This document shows, piece after piece, positions 8,654 to 64,000 of a stretch of DNA of 64,000 bases (position 1 is its first letter; every line of letters starts with the position of its first letter). Both the position numbers and the translations under genes were made by a program. The notes under the pieces are model-generated. The model did not search any database, was not told the DNA's origin, and worked only from the letters and a program-made list of their open reading frames with translations. The DNA is from Candidatus Woesearchaeota archaeon (lineage in GTDB: Archaea > Nanobdellota > Nanobdellia > SCGC-AAA011-G17 > GW2011-AR17). The stretch is from the NCBI GenBank assembly GCA_016235495.1, contig JACRKH010000021.1:14725-78724 (forward strand), given 5' to 3'.

Positions 8654-9418
8654 ATGAAAGTCGATAAATCTATTCTAAGGGAAATTGATAGGAAGCTTGG
8701 GTACATTAAAGAGAAAGAAGGTTCTGCCTATTTTAATTTAGCCTTTAATAGAAGAAGACAGTTTCTCCGTGCACTTGCAAACTTTCATTCTTCTGCAATA
8801 GAACATCCTGTAGAATCAAGTCTTAGCCTCAAAAAAGGGAGAAGATCACATGAAGCAAGAAAAATCAAAGAAGCAGCAAAAGTTATTCAAAGCGCTTGGC
8901 TTGCTTCAATGAGTTACACAGATATTTTTAATCCAGATATGGTAAAGGCAATGAATTACATGATTCAAAATAACACTCCAAATCCTCCAAAGAACAAATT
9001 AGGTGCTTTCCGTCAGGCAAGAGTAACCTTAGGCTTAAATTTTACCCCTCCTAATTATGTCAAAATACCAGAACTGATGGATTCACTCTATAGAAGAATT
9101 CAAACACAATACGAAGGTGCTGCTCATCCTATTGAAGCATCAATTGAAGCACACTTTGGTATTGCAACAATCCAACCTTTTGGAGATGGAAATAAAAGAA
9201 CTGCTCGTCTGTATCAAGCAAGAATCCTTGATTCAAAAGCTCTCCCCATTCCATACATTCCAGTAGGAGAAAGACTTTTTTACCTTAAACTATTGGAAGA
9301 AGCAGGTTACGCAGCATCAGTACATAAAGATAGAGCCTCTACAGAAGAAACGAACTTCGCGAATTACCTTGCTTCTAGAGTCAATGTTTCTCTAGAATTT
9401 ATTTTGGGAAGAAAATAA
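8654..9418 (+). CDS. Fic/Doc family protein with a non-canonical motif QPFGDGNKRTAR (His replaced by Gln; the NKR is Doc-like)
   Basis: The motif at aa 174-185 (nt 9173-9208) matches HxFx(D/N)GNKR of Doc apart from the CAA (Gln) codon in place of His. Its position in the protein fits a Fic fold. Confidence 0.55.
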   Translation: MKVDKSILREIDRKLGYIKEKEGSAYFNLAFNRRRQFLRALANFHSSAIEHPVESSLSLKKGRRSHEARKIKEAAKVIQSAWLASMSYTDIFNPDMVKAMNYMIQNNTPNPPKNKLGAFRQARVTLGLNFTPPNYVKIPELMDSLYRRIQTQYEGAAHPIEASIEAHFGIATIQPFGDGNKRTARLYQARILDSKALPIPYIPVGERLFYLKLLEEAGYAASVHKDRASTEETNFANYLASRVNVSLEFILGRK

Positions 9419-23248: not shown

Positions 23249-23692
23249 ATGAGCTTTACATCATTCTTAGATCCCATCCTTGGTCCATTAATGGGCATAC
23301 CAGCACCATGGAACATTCTTCTCCTGAGTTTTCTTCTTACAGTAGTCATTACTTTGGTCTATAAATTTGCTACCGATCAGAAAATGATGAAAGAGCTGAA
23401 AGACGAAATAAAACAAATTCAGAAAGAAATGAAAGAATTCAAAAACTATCCTGATAAAATAATGGATCTTCAAAAGCGTGCATGGGAAAAAACAATGAAA
23501 CAATTTATGCACAGCTTGAAGCCGACATTGATAACATTCATTCCTATATTAATTATATTCGGCTGGATGAGAACTTATTATACTTCTATAGGAAACCCTC
23601 CTGTACTTTTTGGTCTTGGCTGGATATGGATATACATCGTGAGTTCAATACTCTTTAGTATTCTCTTGAGAAAATTACTCAAAGTGCATTAA
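23249..23692 (+). CDS. DUF106/EMC3/YidC-like membrane protein (a candidate archaeal Oxa1-type insertase)
   Basis: Three TM helices with a charged coiled-coil between TM1 and TM2. This gene follows secY in many archaea. Confidence 0.45.
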   Translation: MSFTSFLDPILGPLMGIPAPWNILLLSFLLTVVITLVYKFATDQKMMKELKDEIKQIQKEMKEFKNYPDKIMDLQKRAWEKTMKQFMHSLKPTLITFIPILIIFGWMRTYYTSIGNPPVLFGLGWIWIYIVSSILFSILLRKLLKVH

Positions 23693-24305: not shown

Positions 24306-24896
24306 ATGAATACAAAAAAATTAGATAATGTCAAATTAATAGAGTTAAATGAAGCATATCAAAAAATACTCTACTGGTTTTTCTCCTTTCCAAATACACC
24401 TATTGGACTTAATGATCTCAGCGCAGCCACACAAATTTCTAAAACCACTGCAAAAAAGATTGTAAATAGCCTGGAAAAAGAGAGATTTTTAGATAAAAAG
24501 ATTTATGGAAAAACTTGGATTATAACTTGTAATCAAAGTCATGAGTTTAATCGTACCAAAAAAATAGTTTTTAATTTAAATATGGTTTTTGATACATACT
24601 TAGGGGGATTAAGAGAGGATATTTTAAATTTAGTAGGAAATCCTAAGGTAGCAATTCTTTTTGGAAGCTATAGAAAAGGTGATGATAATGATAAAAGTGA
24701 TATTGATATAGCTGTAGAAATAGCAGGAAATACGGATTTAAAAATAATACACTTGGGAAAAATATCCGAGTTTGGATACAGAAGGGATGTTCCAGTGAAT
24801 GTTCATATATTTTCAAGAAATAAAATAGATATTAATTTATTCTCAAATATTGCAAATGGTATTGTATTAGAAGGCTTTTTAGAGGTGAGAACATGA
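24306..24896 (+). CDS. Minimal nucleotidyltransferase (MNT) with an N-terminal wHTH: the antitoxin component of a HEPN-MNT module
   Basis: GSYRKGDDNDKSDIDIAV matches the Pol-beta NTase GS...DxD motif. It overlaps the downstream HEPN gene by 4 nt. Confidence 0.7.
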   Translation: MNTKKLDNVKLIELNEAYQKILYWFFSFPNTPIGLNDLSAATQISKTTAKKIVNSLEKERFLDKKIYGKTWIITCNQSHEFNRTKKIVFNLNMVFDTYLGGLREDILNLVGNPKVAILFGSYRKGDDNDKSDIDIAVEIAGNTDLKIIHLGKISEFGYRRDVPVNVHIFSRNKIDINLFSNIANGIVLEGFLEVRT

Positions 24897-25297
24897 GATA
24901 TAAACGTCCGGACAAAAAAAATGCTCTGAGTATATTACAAGCATCAGAAAGAGATCTAAAATACACCAATACTTTAACACTTTCAGAAGACTCAAGTTCG
25001 ACAATTATAAGAAATATTTATGAATGCTTTAGAATGTTGGGGGATTCTCTGCTGGTTGCAAAAGGGATTGAATCAGAGGATCATCTCAAGCCTATTCAAG
25101 AACTTATGAACTTAAAAGTAAAAACAGAAAGACCCTTGTTGCTCATAGACAACTTGCGGAGATTAAGGCATAATATTAATTATTATGGATATAGGCCAAG
25201 CTTAGATGAAGCCAAAGAGATAAAAGCCCTGGCAAAAAGCCTATTCGAACCATTGAAGAAGGAAGTTCTTAGAAGTATTCATAGCACTTCTGAATAG
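24893..25297 (+). CDS. HEPN-domain protein (the toxin component)
   Basis: A C-terminal LRRLRHNINYYGY, which is an R-x(n)-H HEPN-like motif followed by NxxYYG. It is paired with the MNT gene. Confidence 0.6.
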   Translation: MRYKRPDKKNALSILQASERDLKYTNTLTLSEDSSSTIIRNIYECFRMLGDSLLVAKGIESEDHLKPIQELMNLKVKTERPLLLIDNLRRLRHNINYYGYRPSLDEAKEIKALAKSLFEPLKKEVLRSIHSTSE

Positions 25298-35546: not shown

Positions 35547-36005
35547 ATGGATATTGCTAGGGGTAAACCCGCGGGTAAAAAACAAAAAGTAGTCTTGTCC
35601 AAAATTTGGGGATGGACAATCTTAATAGCATTAGTTCTTTTGGATGCGTTTCTCGATGTAATTTTTACAAAAGGAAAGGGGCTTGAAAGTCCAGTGTGGA
35701 AGCCAATAGCAAATCTACTAGGAGTAAGCAATCCTCTTTTTTTAACCCCTCTTGTTATAATAATATTCTATTTTGGAGTTAAAGGTGGGGCTTGGTTATC
35801 TGAAAAAGTAGATAAAATCCCAGCTCAAACCGAAGAATTAGTCTTAACAACCATGGTTATTGTCTATGGTGTTTTTGACTTGTGGCTCATTTCAGTTTAT
35901 CTCTTTAATTTTACATTATTCAAAAATCATTATTATTTAATTCCAATACTTATTACAATTGGAATAGCTTATAGCTGGTGGGCTGAAAATAAATTAAAAA
36001 AATAA
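35547..36005 (+). CDS. Small 4-TM membrane protein
   Basis: Hydrophobicity pattern. Its start is 2 nt after the upstream stop. Confidence 0.4.
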   Translation: MDIARGKPAGKKQKVVLSKIWGWTILIALVLLDAFLDVIFTKGKGLESPVWKPIANLLGVSNPLFLTPLVIIIFYFGVKGGAWLSEKVDKIPAQTEELVLTTMVIVYGVFDLWLISVYLFNFTLFKNHYYLIPILITIGIAYSWWAENKLKK

Positions 36006-36116
36006 AAAATCAACTCAGAGAGCACTTAGCCCCTCCTTTCTGCAGGGCTTAACCACATTGGCAAACTTTGCCTAACACAAAAAACCCAGACAATGTAGCA
36101 ATAAGCAGGGAGCAAA

Positions 36117-36149: not shown

Positions 36150-36275
36150 CCCCACGTAGCTTAATGGTTTGAGCACTTGGCTGTAGATAAATTCCCCTTT
36201 TGACACTGCAAAGCAGAGGATGAAATAAGGGTAGCTGAACCCGAGAGGTTCCTGGTTCGAGTCCGGGCGTGGGGA
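36150..36275 (+). tRNA. tRNA-Tyr (anticodon GTA) with a ~53-nt canonical-position intron (about 36188-36240)
   Basis: Acceptor ccccacg/cgtgggg (C1:G72, the archaeal Tyr identity pair), D-arm gctt..gagc, anticodon stem cttgg/ccgag with loop ctGTAga, T-arm cctgg-ttcgagt-ccggg, discriminator A. Confidence 0.7.
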
Positions 36276-36292
36276 CTTATTATTCTAAGAGG
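36197..36292 (+). repeat. Direct-repeat copy 1 (part of the tRNA-Tyr intron, the 3' exon and 17 nt downstream)
   Basis: About 95 bp, matching 37333-37426 with about 5 mismatches or indels. Confidence 0.8.
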
Positions 36293-36308
36293 GAAAGAGT
36301 TGCTCTTT

Positions 36309-36737
36309 CTAGAAAATCATACCCTTTAATGAAGGATAGAGCTTTTTCAGAAATGCTAAGACTTTATCTGCATATTCCTTATTGAAAATAGTCCCATAAT
36401 ATTTTATCCCATTTCTATTATATCTTAGTTCATTCATAAACCTTAATTCTGGCTCAGAAAACTGAAGAATTGTTAAATAGGAAACCTCTGCTTCATGAGA
36501 ACTCTTTGAGGCATATCCATCAAGAAGCATTTTTCCACGGATAATCTCAATAAGGATATCATAAGAAGAATCAATAATAAAATTAGGAGAGATTTTTTCT
36601 TTAGGAATTTTCTCTAAGGCTATTTCTAAGAATGCTTTCTTTTCTTGTGCCTCTTCAAGTAAAGATAAAGCTCTGGCTCTGTTTGAAGACTGTTTTGTGA
36701 CAATCCCCTCTTTTAGGAACTCCTCAAATACTTTCAT
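36309..36737 (-). CDS. HEPN-domain protein (toxin), paralogue of 24893-25297
   Basis: A C-terminal LRYNRNGIKYYG, the same R..N.YYG motif as the first HEPN. Confidence 0.6.
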   Translation of the reverse strand: MKVFEEFLKEGIVTKQSSNRARALSLLEEAQEKKAFLEIALEKIPKEKISPNFIIDSSYDILIEIIRGKMLLDGYASKSSHEAEVSYLTILQFSEPELRFMNELRYNRNGIKYYGTIFNKEYADKVLAFLKKLYPSLKGMIF

Positions 36738-37282
36738 AACTCTATTGCTCCATTAATTGTTATTCCATTAAGAATATTATTCAATAAGTGCTTGTCTATT
36801 CTTTTGAAAAAGTCATAAAAATTGATATTTATTTCTCGTTCTAATTTTTTCTCAAAAGCTTCTAAATTTATTTCTTTCTGTTTTGCTCCTATTACTGCTA
36901 TATCAATATCAGATCTTATTGTATCTTCCCCCCATGCATAAGAGCCAAACAATATAATGGTTGTACCAGGGAATTTCTTGCTCAGCTCTTCTACTAGCTT
37001 TGATTCATAAAGAAGTTTTATATTATTAGCCCTTTTTAAGCCGTGTATTAAAATATTATCTTCATTTAATGAAATGGAAAGCCTTTTTGTTTCTTTATTT
37101 TTGATGACTTTTATATAATCTTCCTTTTCTAAATTTCTTAATGCCTTTCCAATCCCTGGCTGTGAAACGTTTAATGCTACTGCTAGAGCCCTTGCTGTAA
37201 ATACCTCCCCTTTTCTTATGAAAAGAAAATTGAGTACTTCCTGTTCTAATATTGTTAACTGGAGTTTATACATAGTAACCAT
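36734..37282 (-). CDS. MNT nucleotidyltransferase with wHTH (antitoxin), paralogue of 24306-24896
   Basis: A GSYAWGEDTIRSDIDIAV motif and a 4-nt overlap with the HEPN gene. Confidence 0.7.
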   Translation of the reverse strand: MVTMYKLQLTILEQEVLNFLFIRKGEVFTARALAVALNVSQPGIGKALRNLEKEDYIKVIKNKETKRLSISLNEDNILIHGLKRANNIKLLYESKLVEELSKKFPGTTIILFGSYAWGEDTIRSDIDIAVIGAKQKEINLEAFEKKLEREININFYDFFKRIDKHLLNNILNGITINGAIEL

Positions 37283-37332
37283 AGCTTAGTAATATAATCT
37301 GTAGTTTATATACCTTTCTATGAGATTATAGC

Positions 37333-37426
37333 TCTTTTGACGCTGCAAAGCAGAGGATGAAATAAGGGTAGCTGAACCCGAGAGCTTCCTGGTTCGAGTC
37401 CTGGCGTGGGGCTTATTATTCTAAAG
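37333..37426 (+). repeat. Direct-repeat copy 2: a partial tRNA-Tyr copy (intron part plus 3' exon) lacking the 5' exon
   Basis: ttttgacgctgcaaagcagaggatgaaataagggtagctgaacccgagagcttcctggttcgagtcctggcgtggggcttattattctaa. Confidence 0.8.
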
Positions 37427-37428
37427 AA

Positions 37429-37776
37429 CTACAGCATTTTCAAATCGCCAGTAATGCTGTCAATCTTCTTCTCGCTATCCGGACCAATTGCCAAGCAGGT
37501 CACAGTTGGCTTATTGAACACAGTCTTGCCCGCATCGGTAATCAGTGCAGTGACTAAGCCAGCCTCTTCCGCCATTTTCTTGTACTTCATCATTTCTCGC
37601 AAATCAGTGACTTTCAGAGAAACTTTTTTCATGCCTTCTTTTCTCCATTCTTTCACTGCTTCTTTCGTCGACGCTAAAGTCGCTTCCACTGCAGCATGCG
37701 CCACCTGAACAGAAAGTTTCCCTTTCTCCATCTTCAAGTCCATACGCACGAGAATAACCTGCTTCATAAATATCAA
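37429..37776 (-). CDS. pth2: Peptidyl-tRNA hydrolase, archaeal type
   Basis: A KQVILVRMDLKMEKGKLSVQVAHAAV motif. Confidence 0.85.
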   Translation of the reverse strand: MIFMKQVILVRMDLKMEKGKLSVQVAHAAVEATLASTKEAVKEWRKEGMKKVSLKVTDLREMMKYKKMAEEAGLVTALITDAGKTVFNKPTVTCLAIGPDSEKKIDSITGDLKML

Positions 37777-37845: not shown

Positions 37846-39573
37846 ATGAAAAAGATTTCAGTCTTCATAATCACATGCTTCTTGCTTTCTGCAAGCTTTG
37901 CAAGTGCAAATGTACTGAGTAGCGGATGGAATTTTTTAATAACAGGATATGATGTTGTAGAGGAAAGCCCTGCGCCGAGTGGAGACACAGGAACAAGCCC
38001 TGTACCGAGTGACACGATAGCTCCACAGCCTTCTGTATCACAACCCGTTGCAGACCAACAACCCCAACAGCCAGATCAATCTCAACAGCCCCAGCAGTTT
38101 CAAGACCAAAATCAATGCCAGCCTGATCAACCATGTTTTCAAAATCAGCCTAGTCAATCCCAAGAGGGTCAACGGTTCCAGCAGCAAGATCAATCTCAAC
38201 AACCCCAGCAGTTTCAAGACCAAAGGGAATTTAATCAAGGTCAAGAGCAACTCATGCAATTTAATCAGCAAAGACAGCAGCAGCGGCAGAATTGTCCCTC
38301 TGAAGACCAAATAAATCAAATGATTTCTGGCTGTAACCAGCACGGAGGAAACTGGATAAGAAATACAGATCCAAGCGGGTGTACATTCATAGATTGTTCT
38401 TTTAGTGGTGGAAGTCAGCAAGGGCAATTCCAAGGAGCTCCGCAATTTAATCAGCAAGGCCAGTTTGCTCAGCAGCCAGCGCCAACTTGTCGTATAAATG
38501 GAGTAGAGACTCCAGGTGCATGCAGTAATTTTGGAGGAGGACAGCAGGGTCAGTTCCAAGGGGCTCCACAATTTGGCCAGCAAGATCCATTCAGTGGACA
38601 AGCATGTCAAAGCAAAGAGGAAGCAGATCAACAAGCACAAACCTGTGCACAAATAGGCGCACAGCCCATTGCCTCCCCAGGGCAGAATGGTTGTGCTCCG
38701 ATAATTACTTGTAGCCAGAGTGGAAAAGGCGGTTTAAGTTATGATCAATATCAACAAGGTCAACAAGCATTTGAGAGTGGACAAATAGATTCTGTGCAAG
38801 TTCTTGAGGCAATACTAAAAATGGATAGTTTAAAAATCCAAATAAGCAATACACAAAAACAAATGCAGGACATCGCAAATTATTATGAAAGTCAAGGTGA
38901 CTCCGCATCAGCAGCAAGCTACAACAATGCAGCAGACATATTGAGCCAAGTTGCATCAAAGATAGATGAACAGAAGCAAGTTCTGAAAGATGCAGTTTCT
39001 GCAGGGACATTGGATTATGAAACCATTTTCCAAATCAGGTCAGACTTACAATACTCTGTTGATGAACTTATGAACCAAGTAATAAGTGCACTTCTCGGCG
39101 TAGAATACACGGGAATAAGTGGGCAGGCAGGAGAGCTTGAATGTGGCAGCAATGGACTCTGCTTCCAGAATGATTTCAGAGAATGTGCAGCAGGTGCAAC
39201 CTTTAGTCCAGAATCAGGCATATCAATAACTATTTCCGGAGTAGGAAGTGATGATAGCTGTGGATTGCAGGTTTCTGGGCCATTTGGTCAAGCAACCTGT
39301 AATGTCCCTAATTACAGATTCGCACAGTTAAGCAAAGAGGCAATCATGCCCTACTGTGAAGGTTTGCCGGACATGAGTCAAGGACAAGACCAAAATCCTA
39401 GCGAGAATTTTCAAGAACAAGATTCATTCCAGCAGCAAGCTGAAGGAGTAGAGCCTGTAGAGCCTGTAGAACCAATACAGCCAGTAGAACCAGCACCACA
39501 GCCAGCAGAATCCATCTCCCAGGAGCCTACATCAACGCCAGCCCCTGAAGAAACAACACAAGGAGGAGCATAA
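37846..39573 (+). CDS. Secreted Gln/Pro-rich repeat protein with a Cys-containing C-terminal domain and a PVEP-repeat tail
   Basis: A signal peptide, repeated DQSQQPQQFQDQ and GGxQQGQFQGAPQF units, and PVEPVEPVEPIQPVEP at the C-terminus. Confidence 0.55.
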   Translation: MKKISVFIITCFLLSASFASANVLSSGWNFLITGYDVVEESPAPSGDTGTSPVPSDTIAPQPSVSQPVADQQPQQPDQSQQPQQFQDQNQCQPDQPCFQNQPSQSQEGQRFQQQDQSQQPQQFQDQREFNQGQEQLMQFNQQRQQQRQNCPSEDQINQMISGCNQHGGNWIRNTDPSGCTFIDCSFSGGSQQGQFQGAPQFNQQGQFAQQPAPTCRINGVETPGACSNFGGGQQGQFQGAPQFGQQDPFSGQACQSKEEADQQAQTCAQIGAQPIASPGQNGCAPIITCSQSGKGGLSYDQYQQGQQAFESGQIDSVQVLEAILKMDSLKIQISNTQKQMQDIANYYESQGDSASAASYNNAADILSQVASKIDEQKQVLKDAVSAGTLDYETIFQIRSDLQYSVDELMNQVISALLGVEYTGISGQAGELECGSNGLCFQNDFRECAAGATFSPESGISITISGVGSDDSCGLQVSGPFGQATCNVPNYRFAQLSKEAIMPYCEGLPDMSQGQDQNPSENFQEQDSFQQQAEGVEPVEPVEPIQPVEPAPQPAESISQEPTSTPAPEETTQGGA

Positions 39574-43616: not shown

Positions 43617-43856
43617 ATGGCAACAATAACCCTTTCAGTTCCTGAGGAACTCAAGCTTGAAATGGATAAATCTAAGTTTATTAATTGGTCTGCGGTTGCA
43701 CGTGAGGCAATCAAGACAAAAGTGATGCAATTAAAAATTCTTAACTCCATTGCAGCAAAATCAGAGTTGACAGAAAAAGATGCAATTGAAATTGGAAGAA
43801 AAATTAAGAAGAGTATGCATCAGAAGTACCAGAAAGAATATCCTAGGCCACAGTAG
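43617..43856 (+). CDS. RHH/VapB-like antitoxin
   Basis: A small protein with an N-terminal beta-strand and helices (ATITLSVPEELKLEMDK), directly upstream of a PIN gene. Confidence 0.45.
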   Translation: MATITLSVPEELKLEMDKSKFINWSAVAREAIKTKVMQLKILNSIAAKSELTEKDAIEIGRKIKKSMHQKYQKEYPRPQ

Positions 43857-44263
43857 ATGGATCTTGTTATTGATGCTAATATAGTTATTTCTACCATAAT
43901 AGCTCTCCAAGGAAAGACACGTGAGTTGCTTTTTCATGAAGATATTCATTTATTTGCACCAGAGTTTTTGTTGGAAGAATTTGCTAAGCATAGAAAAGAA
44001 ATACTTCAAAAATCTAAACTCCAAGATGAAGATCTTCAACTGGCCCTGAGTTTAATTTCTACAAGGATAAATTTCATCCCTTTTTCCGACATAGAAAAAT
44101 ATGTCTTTTCTGGAAGCTAAGCCCAGACCCAGATGTTGTAGAGTATTTTGCATTGGCACTAAAATTAAATTTTCCCATATGGACCAATGATAAGCTTTTG
44201 AAACAGCAAAGAGTGGTGAAGATCTATTCAACTTCAGAATTATTAAAAGATTTTAATCTCTGA
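43857..44263 (+). pseudogene. PIN-domain (VapC-like) toxin gene disrupted by a -1 frameshift near 44110-44120
   Basis: The N-terminal part (MDLVIDANIVIS...) stops at 44120. The C-terminal part (PDPDVVEYFALALKLNFPIWTNDKLL...) continues in the +2 frame to the TGA at 44263. Confidence 0.55.
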
Positions 44264-62766: not shown

Positions 62767-64000
62767 ATGGGAGCTCATTTGATATCATTAACAGAAAAGA
62801 TTATTCATTTGAATCAAAGGCAAATTGCTATTCTCAGAGACTTTGAGTACCGCCAGAAATTCTTTGCTCGTCACAAACAAGAAGTAGATGCACTCGTAAA
62901 TGCAGCAGAACAGCTTATTCACAAGCCTACACCAAAAATATATAGAATACTGCAAGCACATGTCACAGCCTTGCAAGTTCTCATGAGCACTTCATTGCGT
63001 TACCTCTCTCAGGAAGAACTAGAACGTGATGAAACAAATCTTCTCTCTGAAGAAAGAACAGCAGACACAAATGCACTTCGTATGTTGGAGACAGACTACA
63101 CAGAACTTTGGCAGAATCTTAAACAATTGCATGAGGGAGAAGTAAAATCTTCATTAATGCTTTATCTGATTGATCTTCAGAAAGAAGAGGATGATGTAAA
63201 AAAAGAGCAGAGCATAAATAAAGAATTACAAAAGATTCTTGCAAATTTAGAAGGGCTTATTGAAGAAGAAAAAAACCTTCTTGAGGATGAATTGAATATT
63301 CTCCATCAAAAATTTAATTTTTCTCTTAATCAACTTGACGAGACAAAGAAAGCAGAACTCAGTTCAGCAGCAGAATCTATTGTCCATGTGGCAGAAAGTT
63401 TAAGAAATCTTATAGAGAGAGAAAATGGCCGGTTTATACAGCCGCTTCGTGCATTCACTTCACAGAAATATGCTCTGAATCAAAGGATTCTCCGTACAGT
63501 AAGCAGGAAAGTCATAACCCTGGGCATGATAAAAAGAGATCTTGCAGAATTAAAGCCTCTGCAGGCAGAACAATACATGGAACAGCTATTTGAACACTAT
63601 CAACAATTTGAACCCACTGCGGTAACATATTTTCTTCGTTTTAAACGTTTTATGGGAAGAAAGACCAAAGAAAAAACAATGAAAGAAGAACAGCTTATAA
63701 GAGAAGGAATAGCAGTGCACAAGACAAGAGCGCAATATGACTCACTAGGAATGTTGAACAGAAAATATGGTGACGAACTGCTTACAGAAAGAATCAAACT
63801 TGCACTCACAAAGGGGGAAGAGATATTCATTCTTCTCATAGATGCAGACAAGTTCAAAGAAATAAATGATACCTATGGCCACCATACTGGAGATATAGTT
63901 CTCATGGCAATTTCATCGATAGCACAGGAAAGCATTGGAGAAAAAGACACTTTCTTTCGCTGGGGGGGTGAAGAATTTATAGTTCTTTTTAACTCTATTA
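62767..64000 (+). CDS. Signal-transduction protein with an N-terminal coiled-coil region and a C-terminal GGDEF (diguanylate cyclase) domain; partial, runs off the window end
   Basis: I translated the frame by hand. It is open from the ATG at 62767 to 64000. The C-terminus reads YDSLGMLNRKYGDE...ILLIDADKFKEINDTYGHHTGDIVL...FFRWGGEEFIVLF, the GGDEF consensus with a GGEEF active site. It is missing from the ORF track because it has no stop. Confidence 0.7.
   Translation, partial: MGAHLISLTEKIIHLNQRQIAILRDFEYRQKFFARHKQEVDALVNAAEQLIHKPTPKIYRILQAHVTALQVLMSTSLRYLSQEELERDETNLLSEERTADTNALRMLETDYTELWQNLKQLHEGEVKSSLMLYLIDLQKEEDDVKKEQSINKELQKILANLEGLIEEEKNLLEDELNILHQKFNFSLNQLDETKKAELSSAAESIVHVAESLRNLIERENGRFIQPLRAFTSQKYALNQRILRTVSRKVITLGMIKRDLAELKPLQAEQYMEQLFEHYQQFEPTAVTYFLRFKRFMGRKTKEKTMKEEQLIREGIAVHKTRAQYDSLGMLNRKYGDELLTERIKLALTKGEEIFILLIDADKFKEINDTYGHHTGDIVLMAISSIAQESIGEKDTFFRWGGEEFIVLFNSI

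Follow-up and report, generated by a model that had tools for sequence, protein, structure and literature searches.

The window, a 64-kb stretch of DNA from a Candidatus Woesearchaeota archaeon, carries on its forward strand a functional tRNA-Tyr(GUA) gene (36150..36275) with a C1–G72 pair and discriminator A73. The gene is detected by Rfam (RF00005, 47.6 bits) and by ARAGORN in intron mode, and is missed by ARAGORN in default mode. Its 5′ exon (36150-36186) is followed, in the anticodon loop, by a 53-nt intron (36187..36239, forward strand). The splice junction has an ambiguity of 2 nt, and the intron coordinates given by ARAGORN are 36185-36237. A homologous intron occupies the same position in seven Woesearchaeota tRNA-Tyr genes, and compensatory changes are present in the intron helix. 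A sequence comparison of the spacer preceding the gene (36006-36106) gave an apparent likeness to another genome, L022, which has no BLAST support and was set aside.

A segment that begins within this intron is present a second time about 1 kb downstream. Copy 1 (36197..36288, forward strand, 92 nt) is part of the working tRNA gene and consists of the last 43 nt of the intron (intron nt 11-53), the 3′ exon, and a T-rich trailer. Copy 2 (37334..37424, forward strand, 91 nt) differs from it by three substitutions (copy 1/copy 2: A/G at 36204/37341, G/C at 36249/37386, and G/T at 36266/37403) and by one indel, discriminator A36275 being missing from copy 2. The left edge of the repeat thus lies 10 nt inside the intron, and not at the crossover position in the anticodon loop or T loop, and the right edge lies 13 nt beyond the tRNA. 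When homology extending to the left of 36197 toward the anticodon was tested in the orphan copies of the window and of a sister species, it was not significant (p = 0.19 and 0.39). An earlier note on this DNA had reported the recurrence, which is real, but had set the second copy at 37333-37426 and the shared trailer at 17 nt, whereas exact alignment gives the bounds above and a trailer of 13 nt after the tRNA end. Its observations that the second copy lacks a 5′ exon and that the duplicated block crosses the intron-exon junction agree with our alignment.

The two copies share an exact 44-nt core (36205..36248, forward strand, equal to 37342-37385). A 40-mer taken from this core occurs exactly twice in the window, compared to no occurrence in 100 shuffles, and exact-match scans of IMG/VR and JGI metagenomes with shorter parts of the core found no occurrence elsewhere. 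The presence of exactly two repeat copies in the 64-kb window disfavors a multi-copy dispersed element. Logan assemblies from the same organism break exactly at the core, and the DNA between the copies appears there as its own 1,167-nt unitig. Such a pattern might suggest a circular form or an unoccupied site, but the assembly k-mer length (k = 31) and the repeat explain it fully, and it carries no information on either. Also rejected were a 26-nt and an adjoining 14-nt similarity, located in a 152-aa ORF, to the tRNA end and to the anticodon and intron start; there is no surrounding tRNA-like sequence, and we attribute both to chance.

Between the copies lies a unit of 1,045 bp (36289..37333, reverse strand) that comprises a promoter/operator region, two genes, and a 20-nt tail. 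The upstream gene (36734..37282, reverse strand) encodes a 182-aa protein with a winged-helix domain and a minimal nucleotidyltransferase (MNT) domain, as judged by Pfam matches to NTP_transf_2 (5.4e-11), Polbeta, and MarR_2. Its GSx10DxD motif reads GSYAWGEDTIRSDID in the translation, and 848 homologs were found. The match to the NCBIfam MntA family (6.9e-8, 32 bits) falls under the family cut-off of 60. The MNT gene overlaps by 4 nt a downstream gene (36309..36737, reverse strand) for a 142-aa protein that was assigned to the HEPN fold by fold comparison only; a profile search of PDB sequences with the family alignment gave no significant match. This protein carries the motif R108-x4-Y113-Y114-G115 (R108-N-G-I-K-Y113-Y114-G115) in place of Rx4H. 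In an alignment of 46 sequences, R105, Y113, Y114, and G115 are invariant, and R108 is nearly invariant. H81, E82, and E84 also vary hardly at all. The HEPN protein is a putative toxin and the MNT protein a putative antitoxin and autoregulator, and the pair may be an addiction module of the toxin-antitoxin type, although the canonical Rx4H motif is missing from the toxin.

The left end of the cassette (37283..37333, reverse strand), read from sequence, holds a BRE/TATA element (TATA at 37307-37314) and an operator-like sequence, and it likely acts as the promoter of the MNT-HEPN operon. The layout GAAAG-ATATATAAAC-palindrome-ATG found there recurs in 10 other cassettes. Non-coding DNA within the unit amounts to 33 and 51 nt (84 nt in total), and there is no ORF or fragment of a recombinase. 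The unit and the window ORFs scanned contain neither a tyrosine recombinase or integrase nor intI. The earlier note had likewise seen only a HEPN-MNT pair and no integrase between the copies, and our ORF and Pfam analysis, which finds the promoter and the two genes alone, bears this out. The unit also differs in composition from its surroundings, with a GC content of 30.6% against a window mean of 37.3 ± 2.6% that places it in the lowest 0.9% of window tiles.

Six related Woesearchaeota genomes lack the unit (L003, L004, L006, L007, L008, and L023). In these genomes the repeated segment is present once, with matching flanks on both sides, and an intron-bearing tRNA-Tyr gene lies directly beside pth2, which is the empty site that the earlier note had described. 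The gene order S487–tRNA-Tyr–pth2 is found in five of them, all GTDB genomes, and tRNA-Tyr–pth2 in L023, the nearest empty-site relative, whose tRNA-Tyr exons have the same sequence as those of the window. The intron is present in all of these relatives and therefore predates the insertion. In the window, pth2 (peptidyl-tRNA hydrolase; 37429..37767, reverse strand; Pfam PTH2, 5.6e-37) is the conserved chromosomal neighbor that marks the ancestral site.

A sister species (86-91% nucleotide identity) carries the same insertion at the same location with the same left repeat boundary. Between the two species, dS is 0.47 for the MNT gene and 0.56 for the HEPN gene, compared to 0.44 and 0.91 for flanking genes, and both cassette genes are under purifying selection (omega of 0.10 and 0.13, respectively). 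Because the cassette is shared at one site and has diverged about as much as the chromosome, the insertion is old, vertically inherited, and functional, rather than a recently mobile element, and it happened in the common ancestor of these two Woesearchaeota species. In the sister genome, a GNAT gene on the opposite strand begins in the outer flank of the orphan copy. This gene and the 152-aa ORF of the window are lineage-specific insertions beside the locus, and neither is accompanied by a long duplication. The A/G difference at 36204/37341 was considered as a mark of element-derived sequence and was dropped, since the sister species has G in both copies.

Copy 2 is an orphan that starts in the 3′ part of the intron and runs through the 3′ exon into the trailer; in addition to the loss of A73 it has a U-U mismatch in the T stem. 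Its place is the ancestral one: 4 nt separate it from the stop codon of pth2, and in most empty-site relatives the real tRNA is within about 10 nt of that codon. Compared with L023 and the sister species, the three changes in its exon are derived. The orphan copy is conserved far beyond neutral DNA: the copies of the two species are 94% identical versus 72-73% for adjoining non-coding DNA, with 5 differences in 80 aligned columns against a neighboring non-coding divergence of 27-28% (binomial p about 1.5e-6). The trailer has species-specific states (CTTATTA vs CTTTTA) that are common to both copies within a species, which may point to gene conversion between the copies.

One reading of this conservation is that the orphan copy is kept for a function of its own, as a 3′ tRNA half (an incipient split tRNA), as a terminator or 3′ end native to pth2, or as part of the cassette operator. 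The low divergence and the placement next to pth2 would fit such a role. However, an intact tRNA-Tyr gene is present, the orphan has no 5′ partner sequence, its T stem is mismatched and the identity base A73 has been lost in the window, and the BRE side of the adjoining promoter would drive the MNT operon away from the copy. A split tRNA 3′ half would have a promoter of its own and a leader pairing with the transcript of a 5′ half, and the genome would lack an intact gene for that tRNA, unlike the arrangement here. The species-specific trailer states point instead to gene conversion as a possible cause of the conservation. We therefore consider a separate function of the orphan very improbable.

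The cassette family was surveyed at 54 metagenomic loci, each with both cassette genes and no less than 150 nt of flanking sequence on either side. Strong direct repeats (86-100% identity) bracket the cassette at six of these loci, with lengths of 193, 138, 100, 92, 32, and 22 nt, and weaker repeats of the same geometry are present at three or four more. Tight bracketing is thus found at no fewer than 6 to 10 of the 54 loci, by repeats of about 21-193 nt, and only about 11-20% of family members have flanking repeats. In most loci, the upstream repeat copy ends 44-83 nt before the MNT start codon (51 nt in the window), and the downstream copy starts 0-20 nt past the HEPN stop codon (20 nt in the window). 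When mock 1-kb units were placed elsewhere in the same loci, such repeats were seen in 8 of 1118 placements (Fisher’s exact test against 6 of 54, p = 1.6e-5). The five control places that gave these repeats are themselves small accessory units, among them a Fic gene and another NTase/HEPN pair.

The repeats in the survey are locus-specific and are not derived from tRNA genes. They duplicate, for example, the 3′ end of dnaK, the 3′ ends of upstream ORFs, the promoter and 5′ end of a gene for a 259-aa protein, or the 5′ end of a PD-(D/E)XK-type gene, and one intact copy of the duplicated gene is always kept at the repeat-flanked loci. Genomes with an empty site are known for the tRNA-Tyr locus, and at the survey loci the repeats may conceivably have existed before the cassette arrived. 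ORF calling, from which loci L046, L082, and L096 were left out, found only the two cassette genes between the repeats elsewhere. At one locus (L075), ARAGORN reported a tRNA-Ile with a 1302-nt intron across the cassette; this is a false positive whose 3′ half lies inside the HEPN gene. Because the same cassette boundaries occur at non-tRNA targets, the tRNA gene seems to be one of many possible targets and not a dedicated att site.

DNA similarity among cassettes at unrelated loci extends from about position -45 relative to the MNT start codon to the HEPN stop codon. The similarity ends at fixed points, and the cassette is therefore a discrete unit; the boundaries of the unit in the window coincide with the extent of this similarity. 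A special case is provided by L054/L055, in which four copies of a 60-nt repeat enclose three different NTase/HEPN pairs. Three cassettes that share one 60-nt target and the same boundaries look like the product of a site- or homology-directed process rather than of random insertion.

We also searched for mobile relatives of the insertion. The core was not found by exact matching in IMG/VR (29-mer and 21-mer) or in JGI metagenomes (21-mer), a BLAST search of the region against PLSDB gave no match, and no relatives of the MNT protein were found on viral contigs. The exact-match scans and the PLSDB search likewise gave no sign of a circular or excised form or of a free attP. The earlier note had proposed looking for integrases with the same att core elsewhere; the viral, metagenome, and plasmid collections searched gave no match to this core.

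Given these observations, we favor, with slightly better than even confidence, the view that the 1.05-kb MNT-HEPN cassette entered behind tRNA-Tyr by insertion with long target duplication and not by recombination of attP with attB by a tRNA-Tyr-specific integrase. The insert is a gene unit and nothing else, well below 20 kb; it is flanked by repeats longer than 30 bp; the empty site carries the segment in single copy; and the repeat, with two copies in the 64-kb window, is not a dispersed one. These are the features by which Furuta et al. (2010) recognized such events. A separation from site-specific recombination is less clear-cut here: the unit and the window ORFs scanned lack an integrase, and family members carry non-tRNA duplications, yet integrases prefer tRNA 3′ parts such as the one targeted at this locus. 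The flanking copies of local genes at related cassettes suggest that these units move without a tRNA-specific integrase, and an integrase was probably absent at the time of insertion. Thus, the earlier interpretation of the repeats as attL and attR stands insofar as an insertion has duplicated the 3′ part of tRNA-Tyr, and is weakened by cassettes with the same boundaries that are bracketed by non-tRNA duplications.

The most serious competitor of this interpretation is classical integration. A larger virus or plasmid with a tRNA-Tyr-derived attP and a tyrosine recombinase would have produced attL, with the rebuilt tRNA gene, and attR, with the orphan, and internal deletions would then have spared the toxin-antitoxin pair whose loss is harmful. 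The 3′ part of a tRNA is the classical tyrosine-integrase target, a rebuilt gene facing an orphan 3′ fragment across the insert is the expected outcome, and a 92-bp identity block is within the usual range. Archaeal elements are known in intron-containing tRNA genes (PMC6563490, PMC3293823), the GC content of the cassette is foreign-like, and a dS of about 0.5 leaves time for decay, such that an element reduced to its toxin-antitoxin pair would look alike. However, the 1,045 bp are filled by two intact genes and their 33 and 51 nt of non-coding DNA, with no integrase or remnant of one, and random deletion would have to reproduce by chance the very ends that the cassette has at non-tRNA sites. 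Moreover, the repeat begins inside the intron and not in the anticodon loop, with no significant homology further left, and the att core is missing from the viral, metagenome, and plasmid collections searched. We regard this course of events as unlikely, albeit with a probability that is far from negligible.

A different possibility is that the cassette is an active mini-element without an integrase, resembling bacterial cis-mobilisable elements, that is excised and re-integrated in trans by a tRNA-Tyr-specific integrase encoded elsewhere. This proposal is close to the minimal mobile cassette targeting tRNA-Tyr that the earlier note had offered. The unit is compact and has its own promoter, and the repeat copies are 94-96% alike compared to 72-73% for the surrounding non-coding DNA. 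Excision and re-integration would shuffle the differences between copies, however, and not erase them. The same location and left boundary in two species, together with a cassette dS equal to that of the chromosome, indicate vertical inheritance without turnover. Also, no second copy, other site, or attP-like junction was found in the window, IMG/VR, or the JGI metagenomes, and no integrase is among the window ORFs scanned. Therefore, we consider mobilization in trans to be improbable.

Long target duplication could have proceeded as follows. A naked addiction module that encodes neither transposase nor integrase would enter the chromosome through two joints separated by tens to hundreds of bases. 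The duplication would come from an event of the repair or replication type, through staggered joints or a template switch. At the tRNA-Tyr locus, the duplicated target is the 92 bp from the end of the intron through the 3′ exon to the terminator-like trailer, and one flank now has an intact tRNA gene while the other has the orphan fragment. In a second stage, the two copies may recombine homologously, and gene conversion would keep the orphan tRNA-like. A circle that pops out with one repeat copy could insert again, by a single crossover, at the corresponding site of a related genome. If the repeats recombined and the cassette was lost, the toxin-antitoxin pair would select against the outcome. 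To our knowledge, no mechanism for long target duplication has been established in any organism.

We tentatively extend this scheme to other units, although with somewhat less than even confidence. The wHTH-MNT/HEPN cassettes, and probably other small toxin or defense units of DPANN archaea, may be autonomous mobile modules that enter genomes without an integrase or transposase and create target duplications that vary in length from about 20 to 200 bp. The resulting repeats would support conversion, tandem accretion as seen at L054, and possibly excision and re-entry. The tRNA-Tyr locus would then represent a fossil of such an event, with its orphan held by conversion.

How toxin-antitoxin and restriction-modification modules move between genomes without a transposase is a long-standing question. 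Long target duplication has never been explained mechanistically, and has been tied tentatively to the DNA breaks made by the restriction enzyme itself. In DPANN archaea, RNase-fold toxin-antitoxin cassettes leave this footprint both at the ends of many protein genes and at a tRNA gene with an intron. Confirmation would make the process independent of DNA-cutting cargo and would mean that it is not confined to bacteria. Because the ends of the cassettes are sharply defined, the dozens of natural events in this family might be used to derive rules for the junctions. In addition, the tRNA-Tyr locus demonstrates that an intron gives a tRNA gene no protection from insertion and that an orphan tRNA fragment can persist almost unchanged while synonymous sites accumulate roughly 0.5 substitutions each. 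Models of how tRNA fragments and split tRNA genes arise are affected by both findings.

The two genes of the cassette resemble the type VII HepT/MntA systems, in which the MNT gene likewise lies upstream of, and overlaps, the gene for a HEPN-fold protein. The GSx10DxD motif is shared, and the structural neighbors include HepT-MntA complexes. However, the MNT protein examined herein has an N-terminal winged helix and scores below the MntA cut-off, and its partner has Rx4YY instead of Rx4HxY, such that the canonical motif (Rx4-6H with the AMPylated tyrosine) is absent. Purifying selection on both genes would be indirect support for a toxin that the MNT protein neutralizes. Bacterial cis-mobilisable elements (CIMEs) arise by deletion from integrative elements that are known at the same site and encode an integrase, and like them the cassette presents cargo without recombination genes between att-like direct repeats. 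We know of no parent element of this kind for the tRNA-Tyr cassette. Integron cassettes differ in that they terminate in attC, a structured imperfect palindrome, and lie beside intI/attI, whereas the repeat here is a copy of a host tRNA, or elsewhere of adjacent gene ends, and no intI was seen.

The resemblance to archaeal elements integrated in tRNA genes (SSV-type, pNOB8-type, and thaumarchaeal; PMC6563490, reviewed in PMC8371274) is more extensive. In these, too, repeats of a tRNA 3′ part bracket foreign DNA and one side carries the rebuilt tRNA, the targets include tRNA genes with introns (10 such cases are described from Thaumarchaeota; PMC6563490), and the cargo often comprises toxin-antitoxin genes. 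An integrase is encoded by those elements, split in the SSV type and intact in the pNOB8 type, and the smallest reported is 2.6 kb with its integrase included. The unit described here shares the tRNA 3′-part repeats, but spans 1,045 bp without a tyrosine recombinase, and the same cassette is also found with non-tRNA duplications. In Caldiarchaeum subterraneum, a tRNA-Thr fragment and a 1.8-kb insertion (Sugahara et al. 2012, PMC3293823) similarly involve an intron-bearing archaeal tRNA gene and a fragment about 1-2 kb from the intact gene, and this case has been considered as a way for tRNA genes to acquire introns and become split. There, however, the fragment is a 5′ one, the insert encodes a recombinase, and the intron is thought to have been brought by the element, whereas at the tRNA-Tyr locus the intron is older and a recombinase is absent.

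The closest parallel is provided by the restriction-modification units for which insertion with long target duplication was described from comparisons of bacterial genomes (Furuta, Abe & Kobayashi 2010, PMC2853133), a screen in which no archaeal case passed. The cassette differs from those units in its DPANN archaeal host, its intron-bearing tRNA target, and an ancient insertion that is fixed in two species. Its cargo is also distinct, in that the MNT/HEPN pair with its RNase-fold toxin is not a DNA-cutting restriction system, and therefore the role in double-strand breakage that was proposed for restriction cargo is not applicable. Nevertheless, in both cases a small addiction-type unit without a transposase or integrase lies between repeats of more than 30 bp that duplicate the local target. 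Both also share a related empty site that aligns with the repeat, a repeat length that varies from case to case, an atypical GC content of the insert, and several targets that overlap the 3′ ends of genes.

The tRNA-Tyr(GUA) gene of this Woesearchaeota (DPANN) genome, which in GTDB is closest to Candidatus Woesearchaeota MAGs and whose window proteins carry NCBI locus tags HZA98_016xx, lies at 36150-36275 and has a 53-nt intron in its anticodon loop (Rfam 47.6 bits; ARAGORN intron mode, which is needed, as the default bacterial run misses the gene). An earlier note on this DNA had claimed that the 3′ part of the gene is directly repeated. Exact alignment bears this out: positions 36197-36288 (copy 1) recur at 37334-37424 (copy 2) with 3 substitutions, 1 indel, and a 44-nt identical core, a 40-mer of which occurs exactly twice in the window and in none of 100 shuffles. 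The repeat comprises intron nucleotides 11-53, the 3′ exon, and a T-rich trailer of 13 nt, and so the extent first proposed (copies of ~95 bp with 17 nt of downstream flank) needs correction. Copy 2 indeed lacks a 5′ exon, and it also carries a U-U mismatch in the T-stem and has lost discriminator A73. Because the copy-1 states are also found in the tRNA-Tyr gene of the nearest empty site (L023) and in the orphan copy of a sister species, the three changes in copy 2 represent derived decay.

The intron is older than the insertion, given that all seven tRNA-Tyr genes compared have a homologous intron, with compensatory changes in its helix. The intron motif RGAUGAAA (36218-36226; columns 70-78 of intron alignment A3) is conserved in 7/7 Woesearchaeota genes. 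Its version in locus L007, GAUGAUGA, is box C-like, and the window intron ends with a box D-like CUGA. These RNAs may carry a box C/D-like or K-turn element, for which no Rfam family scored above threshold.

The 1,045 bp between the copies (36289-37333, minus strand) contain two overlapping genes and almost nothing else. There is no room for a recombinase, consistent with the statement in the earlier note that no integrase remains there. The upstream gene (36734-37282, minus strand) encodes a winged-helix protein with an MNT nucleotidyltransferase domain (Pfam NTP_transf_2, 5e-11, plus Polbeta and MarR_2) that matches NCBIfam MntA below the family cut-off. The second gene belongs to a HEPN-like family with the motif R-x4-Y-Y-G rather than the R-x4-H of canonical HEPN toxins. 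Invariant or near-invariant positions in the family alignment (A2) are R105, R108, N109, Y113, Y114, and G115, together with the stretch H81-E82-A83-E84. Since the His of Rx4H is absent and other residues are conserved, the chemistry of this family may differ from that of HepT RNases. Thus, the HEPN-MNT pair reported previously stands in fold and architecture, but judged by its predicted catalytic motif it does not belong to the HepT/MntA type VII systems. The unit also stands apart in base composition, a comparison proposed earlier, with a GC content (30.6%) that places it among the lowest 0.9% of window tiles of the same size.

Pairs of this kind are very common in DPANN archaea (848 MNT and 128 HEPN-like homologs). 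The window itself carries a second, distant pair at 24306-25297, composed of a wHTH-MNT protein (196 aa, 29% identity) and a HEPN-like protein (134 aa, motif LRRLRHNINYYG). It lies between ribosomal-protein genes, has no flanking repeats, and is very poor in GC (28% in its MNT gene). Other addiction-type genes in the window are an RHH and PIN_2 pair at 43617-44120 (Logan gene calls) and a Fic/DOC protein gene at 8654-9418. The closest cassette outside the window organism and its sister species (L022; HEPN 79% aa identity, MNT gene truncated) adjoins a homolog of window gene 23249-23692. The backbone of that genome has only ~68% nucleotide identity, which suggests that the cassette has moved horizontally between lineages.

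Related genomes provide the empty site. Five GTDB Woesearchaeota genomes carry the gene order Rad50, S487, tRNA-Tyr (with a homologous intron), and pth2 with no cassette. In these, the neighboring GTPase has 57-67% aa identity and the tRNA ends ~10 nt from the pth2 stop. Likewise, pth2 follows tRNA-Tyr in L023, which has the closest pth2 outside the sister species (71% identity) and whose tRNA-Tyr exons match those of copy 1 exactly. The search for tRNA-Tyr directly followed by pth2 was therefore successful, and the proposed insertion with duplication of the tRNA 3′ part is upheld.

The sister species, assembled from SRA runs SRR13554772, -73, -76, and -77 (backbone 86-91% identical to the window), carries the same cassette at the same place (87-89% nt identity), with a tRNA-Tyr 3′ copy on each side and an identical left repeat boundary. 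Values of dS between the two species are 0.47 for MNT and 0.56 for HEPN, compared to 0.44 for S487 and 0.91 for pth2 in the flanks, and omega values of 0.10 (MNT) and 0.13 (HEPN) indicate purifying selection on both cassette genes. Because the dS values match those of the flanks and both genes are under purifying selection, the insertion was a single event that predates the species split, followed by vertical inheritance as a working pair. By these comparisons the insertion is ancient, fixed, and not currently mobile, which speaks against the earlier suggestion of a minimal mobile cassette that targets tRNA-Tyr.

The surroundings went on changing after the insertion. The window acquired a 559-bp segment between the S487 stop and the tRNA-Tyr promoter (35548-36106), which neither the sister species (L026, L027) nor any outgroup has and which holds a 152-aa membrane ORF (35547-36005, GC 33%) with no family match. 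The sister species has a GNAT acetyltransferase gene of 150 aa, lacking in the window and outgroups, between the orphan copy and pth2, with its 3′ end overlapping the pth2 end (L025 (rc) ~60-500; L010; L024). No long duplication was found around either the 559-bp segment or the GNAT insertion. Since this sister-only gene sits there as well, the tRNA-Tyr/pth2 spacer is a recurrent insertion spot. Beyond it, the gene for a 575-aa secreted Q-rich protein adjoins pth2; its imperfect 47-nt repeats, both tandem and dispersed (38056-38224), encode QQPQQFQDQ-type motifs. An ORF running off the window end (62767-64000) encodes a GGDEF diguanylate-cyclase domain (Pfam 3e-24). Such a domain is unusual in archaea, above all in DPANN genomes.

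The orphan copy is, by sequence comparison, far too well conserved for neutral DNA. Only 5 of 80 aligned columns differ between window and sister (94% identical), compared to an identity of only 72-73% for the non-coding DNA immediately beside the cassette genes (binomial p ~1.5e-6). Moreover, the orphan and working copies in the window genome have only 4 differences despite a dS of ~0.5 since insertion. Because both copies share the same species-specific trailer states (CTTATTA in the window, CTTTTA in the sister), these data point to concerted evolution through gene conversion from the constrained tRNA gene. Alternatively, and with low probability, constraint may act on the orphan copy itself, which could serve, for instance, as an operator or as the 3′ end of pth2.

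Searches for an integrase or a free element were negative. No integrase or recombinase was found among the other window ORFs scanned. The att core was not found by exact-match scans with core parts of 21-29 nt in IMG/VR or JGI metagenomes, nor by BLAST of the whole region against PLSDB, and the MNT family was not found on IMG/VR contigs. Logan assemblies of the window organism break at the 44-nt core, but such a break is expected from k = 31 and carries no information on excision.

The first few homologous loci examined had neither a tRNA nor flanking repeats. We surveyed 80 JGI metagenome loci. In the 54 that contain both genes and extend 150 nt or more beyond them in either direction, the 350 nt upstream of the MNT start were compared to the 350 nt that follow the HEPN stop. 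Six of these loci have strong direct repeats (193, 138, 100, 92, 32, and 22 nt; 86-100% identity), and three or four more have weaker repeats with the same geometry. None is tRNA-derived and the repeats differ from locus to locus, with one copy always residing within an intact local gene. The repeated segments come from the last codons of a dnaK-like gene (here the cassette separates dnaK from dnaJ), from ORFs upstream of the cassette (their 3′ ends), from a 259-aa gene (its promoter and first ~28 codons), and from a PD-(D/E)XK-type gene (its 5′ end). The last of these occurs in L054 and L055, where a 60-nt repeat present four times separates three different NTase/HEPN pairs. In L054 (499-4101), these wHTH-NTase/HEPN pairs are in tandem with copies spaced 1.1-1.25 kb apart, and the ~60-nt copy before each pair matches the PD-(D/E)XK-type gene behind the array at its 5′ end. 

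Most of these loci share the geometry of the window, with an upstream copy that stops 44-83 nt short of the MNT start (51 nt in the window) and a downstream copy that begins 0-20 nt past the HEPN stop (20 nt in the window). A conserved BRE/TATA promoter and a palindromic operator-like sequence are predicted between the upstream repeat and the MNT start. Between cassettes at unrelated loci, DNA similarity begins at about −45 relative to the MNT start and ends at the HEPN stop, and therefore the cassette is a discrete unit. When a mock 1-kb unit was placed elsewhere in the survey loci and window, 8 of 1118 placements had comparable repeats (Fisher's exact test against 6/54, p = 1.6e-5). These correspond to five places on DPANN metagenome contigs, each of which is a small accessory unit in its own right with direct repeats of 70-194 nt on both sides (L035 637-1931; L068 2669-3892; L067 5325-6960; L033 7909-9299; L032 2665-4260). 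Among them are another NTase/HEPN pair, a gene for a 298-aa Fic-domain protein (by sequence motif), a 280- and 103-aa pair, a 391-aa gene, and a small-ORF cluster.

Our first-ranked reading, favored with somewhat better than even confidence, is insertion with long target duplication, the type described by Furuta, Abe & Kobayashi (PMC2853133). We rank it first because cassette boundaries are identical at tRNA and non-tRNA targets, which favors one common process. By the operational criteria of that study, the window exhibits a complete addiction-type unit that lacks a mobility gene and is flanked by a repeat >30 bp, and relatives have the empty site. An integrase could instead have inserted a larger element that later decayed to the toxin-antitoxin pair, a second-ranked and rather doubtful scenario. 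A tRNA target also suits integrase action, a caveat raised in PMC2853133, and archaeal elements are documented in intron-containing tRNA genes (PMC6563490; PMC8371274; PMC3293823). However, the documented tRNA elements carry integrases, the smallest reported being 2.6 kb, and the shared cassette ends again favor a single process. The attL/attR interpretation of the earlier note is weakened for the same reason, as cassettes with these boundaries are flanked elsewhere by repeats of non-tRNA gene ends. The tRNA thus probably served as an incidental target, not as a dedicated att site.

Under long target duplication, a fragment with promoter, MNT, and HEPN genes would have been joined into the chromosome through two staggered joints (here by 92 bp). 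Filling in of staggered breaks could produce this, as could a template switch in the course of replication or repair. The target gene would then be intact on one side, with an orphan fragment left on the other. Survival would be limited to events that spare the target gene and keep the cassette whole, which could account for the bias toward gene ends and for cassette boundaries that are close to minimal. The repeats would later serve as substrates for homologous recombination, wherein cassette deletion would be opposed by the toxin-antitoxin pair and gene conversion would be tolerated. Because three different cassettes share one 60-nt target in L054, the data suggest that a duplicated target lets further cassettes enter by homology, perhaps via a popped-out circle carrying one repeat copy.

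Several known systems resemble parts of this arrangement. The cassette is similar to HepT/MntA type VII in fold and architecture, but distinct in catalytic motif. The L054 arrangement is similar to an integron array, but its repeats come from a host gene. The archaeal tRNA-integrated elements reported bear integrases and span at least 2.6 kb, whereas the window unit has 1,045 bp and no recombinase. The long-target-duplication group of PMC2853133 was found in several bacteria, mostly naturally competent, and for every type of restriction-modification system; no archaeal case passed the screen of Furuta et al. This kind of insertion is poorly understood, and here it probably involves a toxin-antitoxin cassette, an archaeal host, and an intron-bearing tRNA gene as target.
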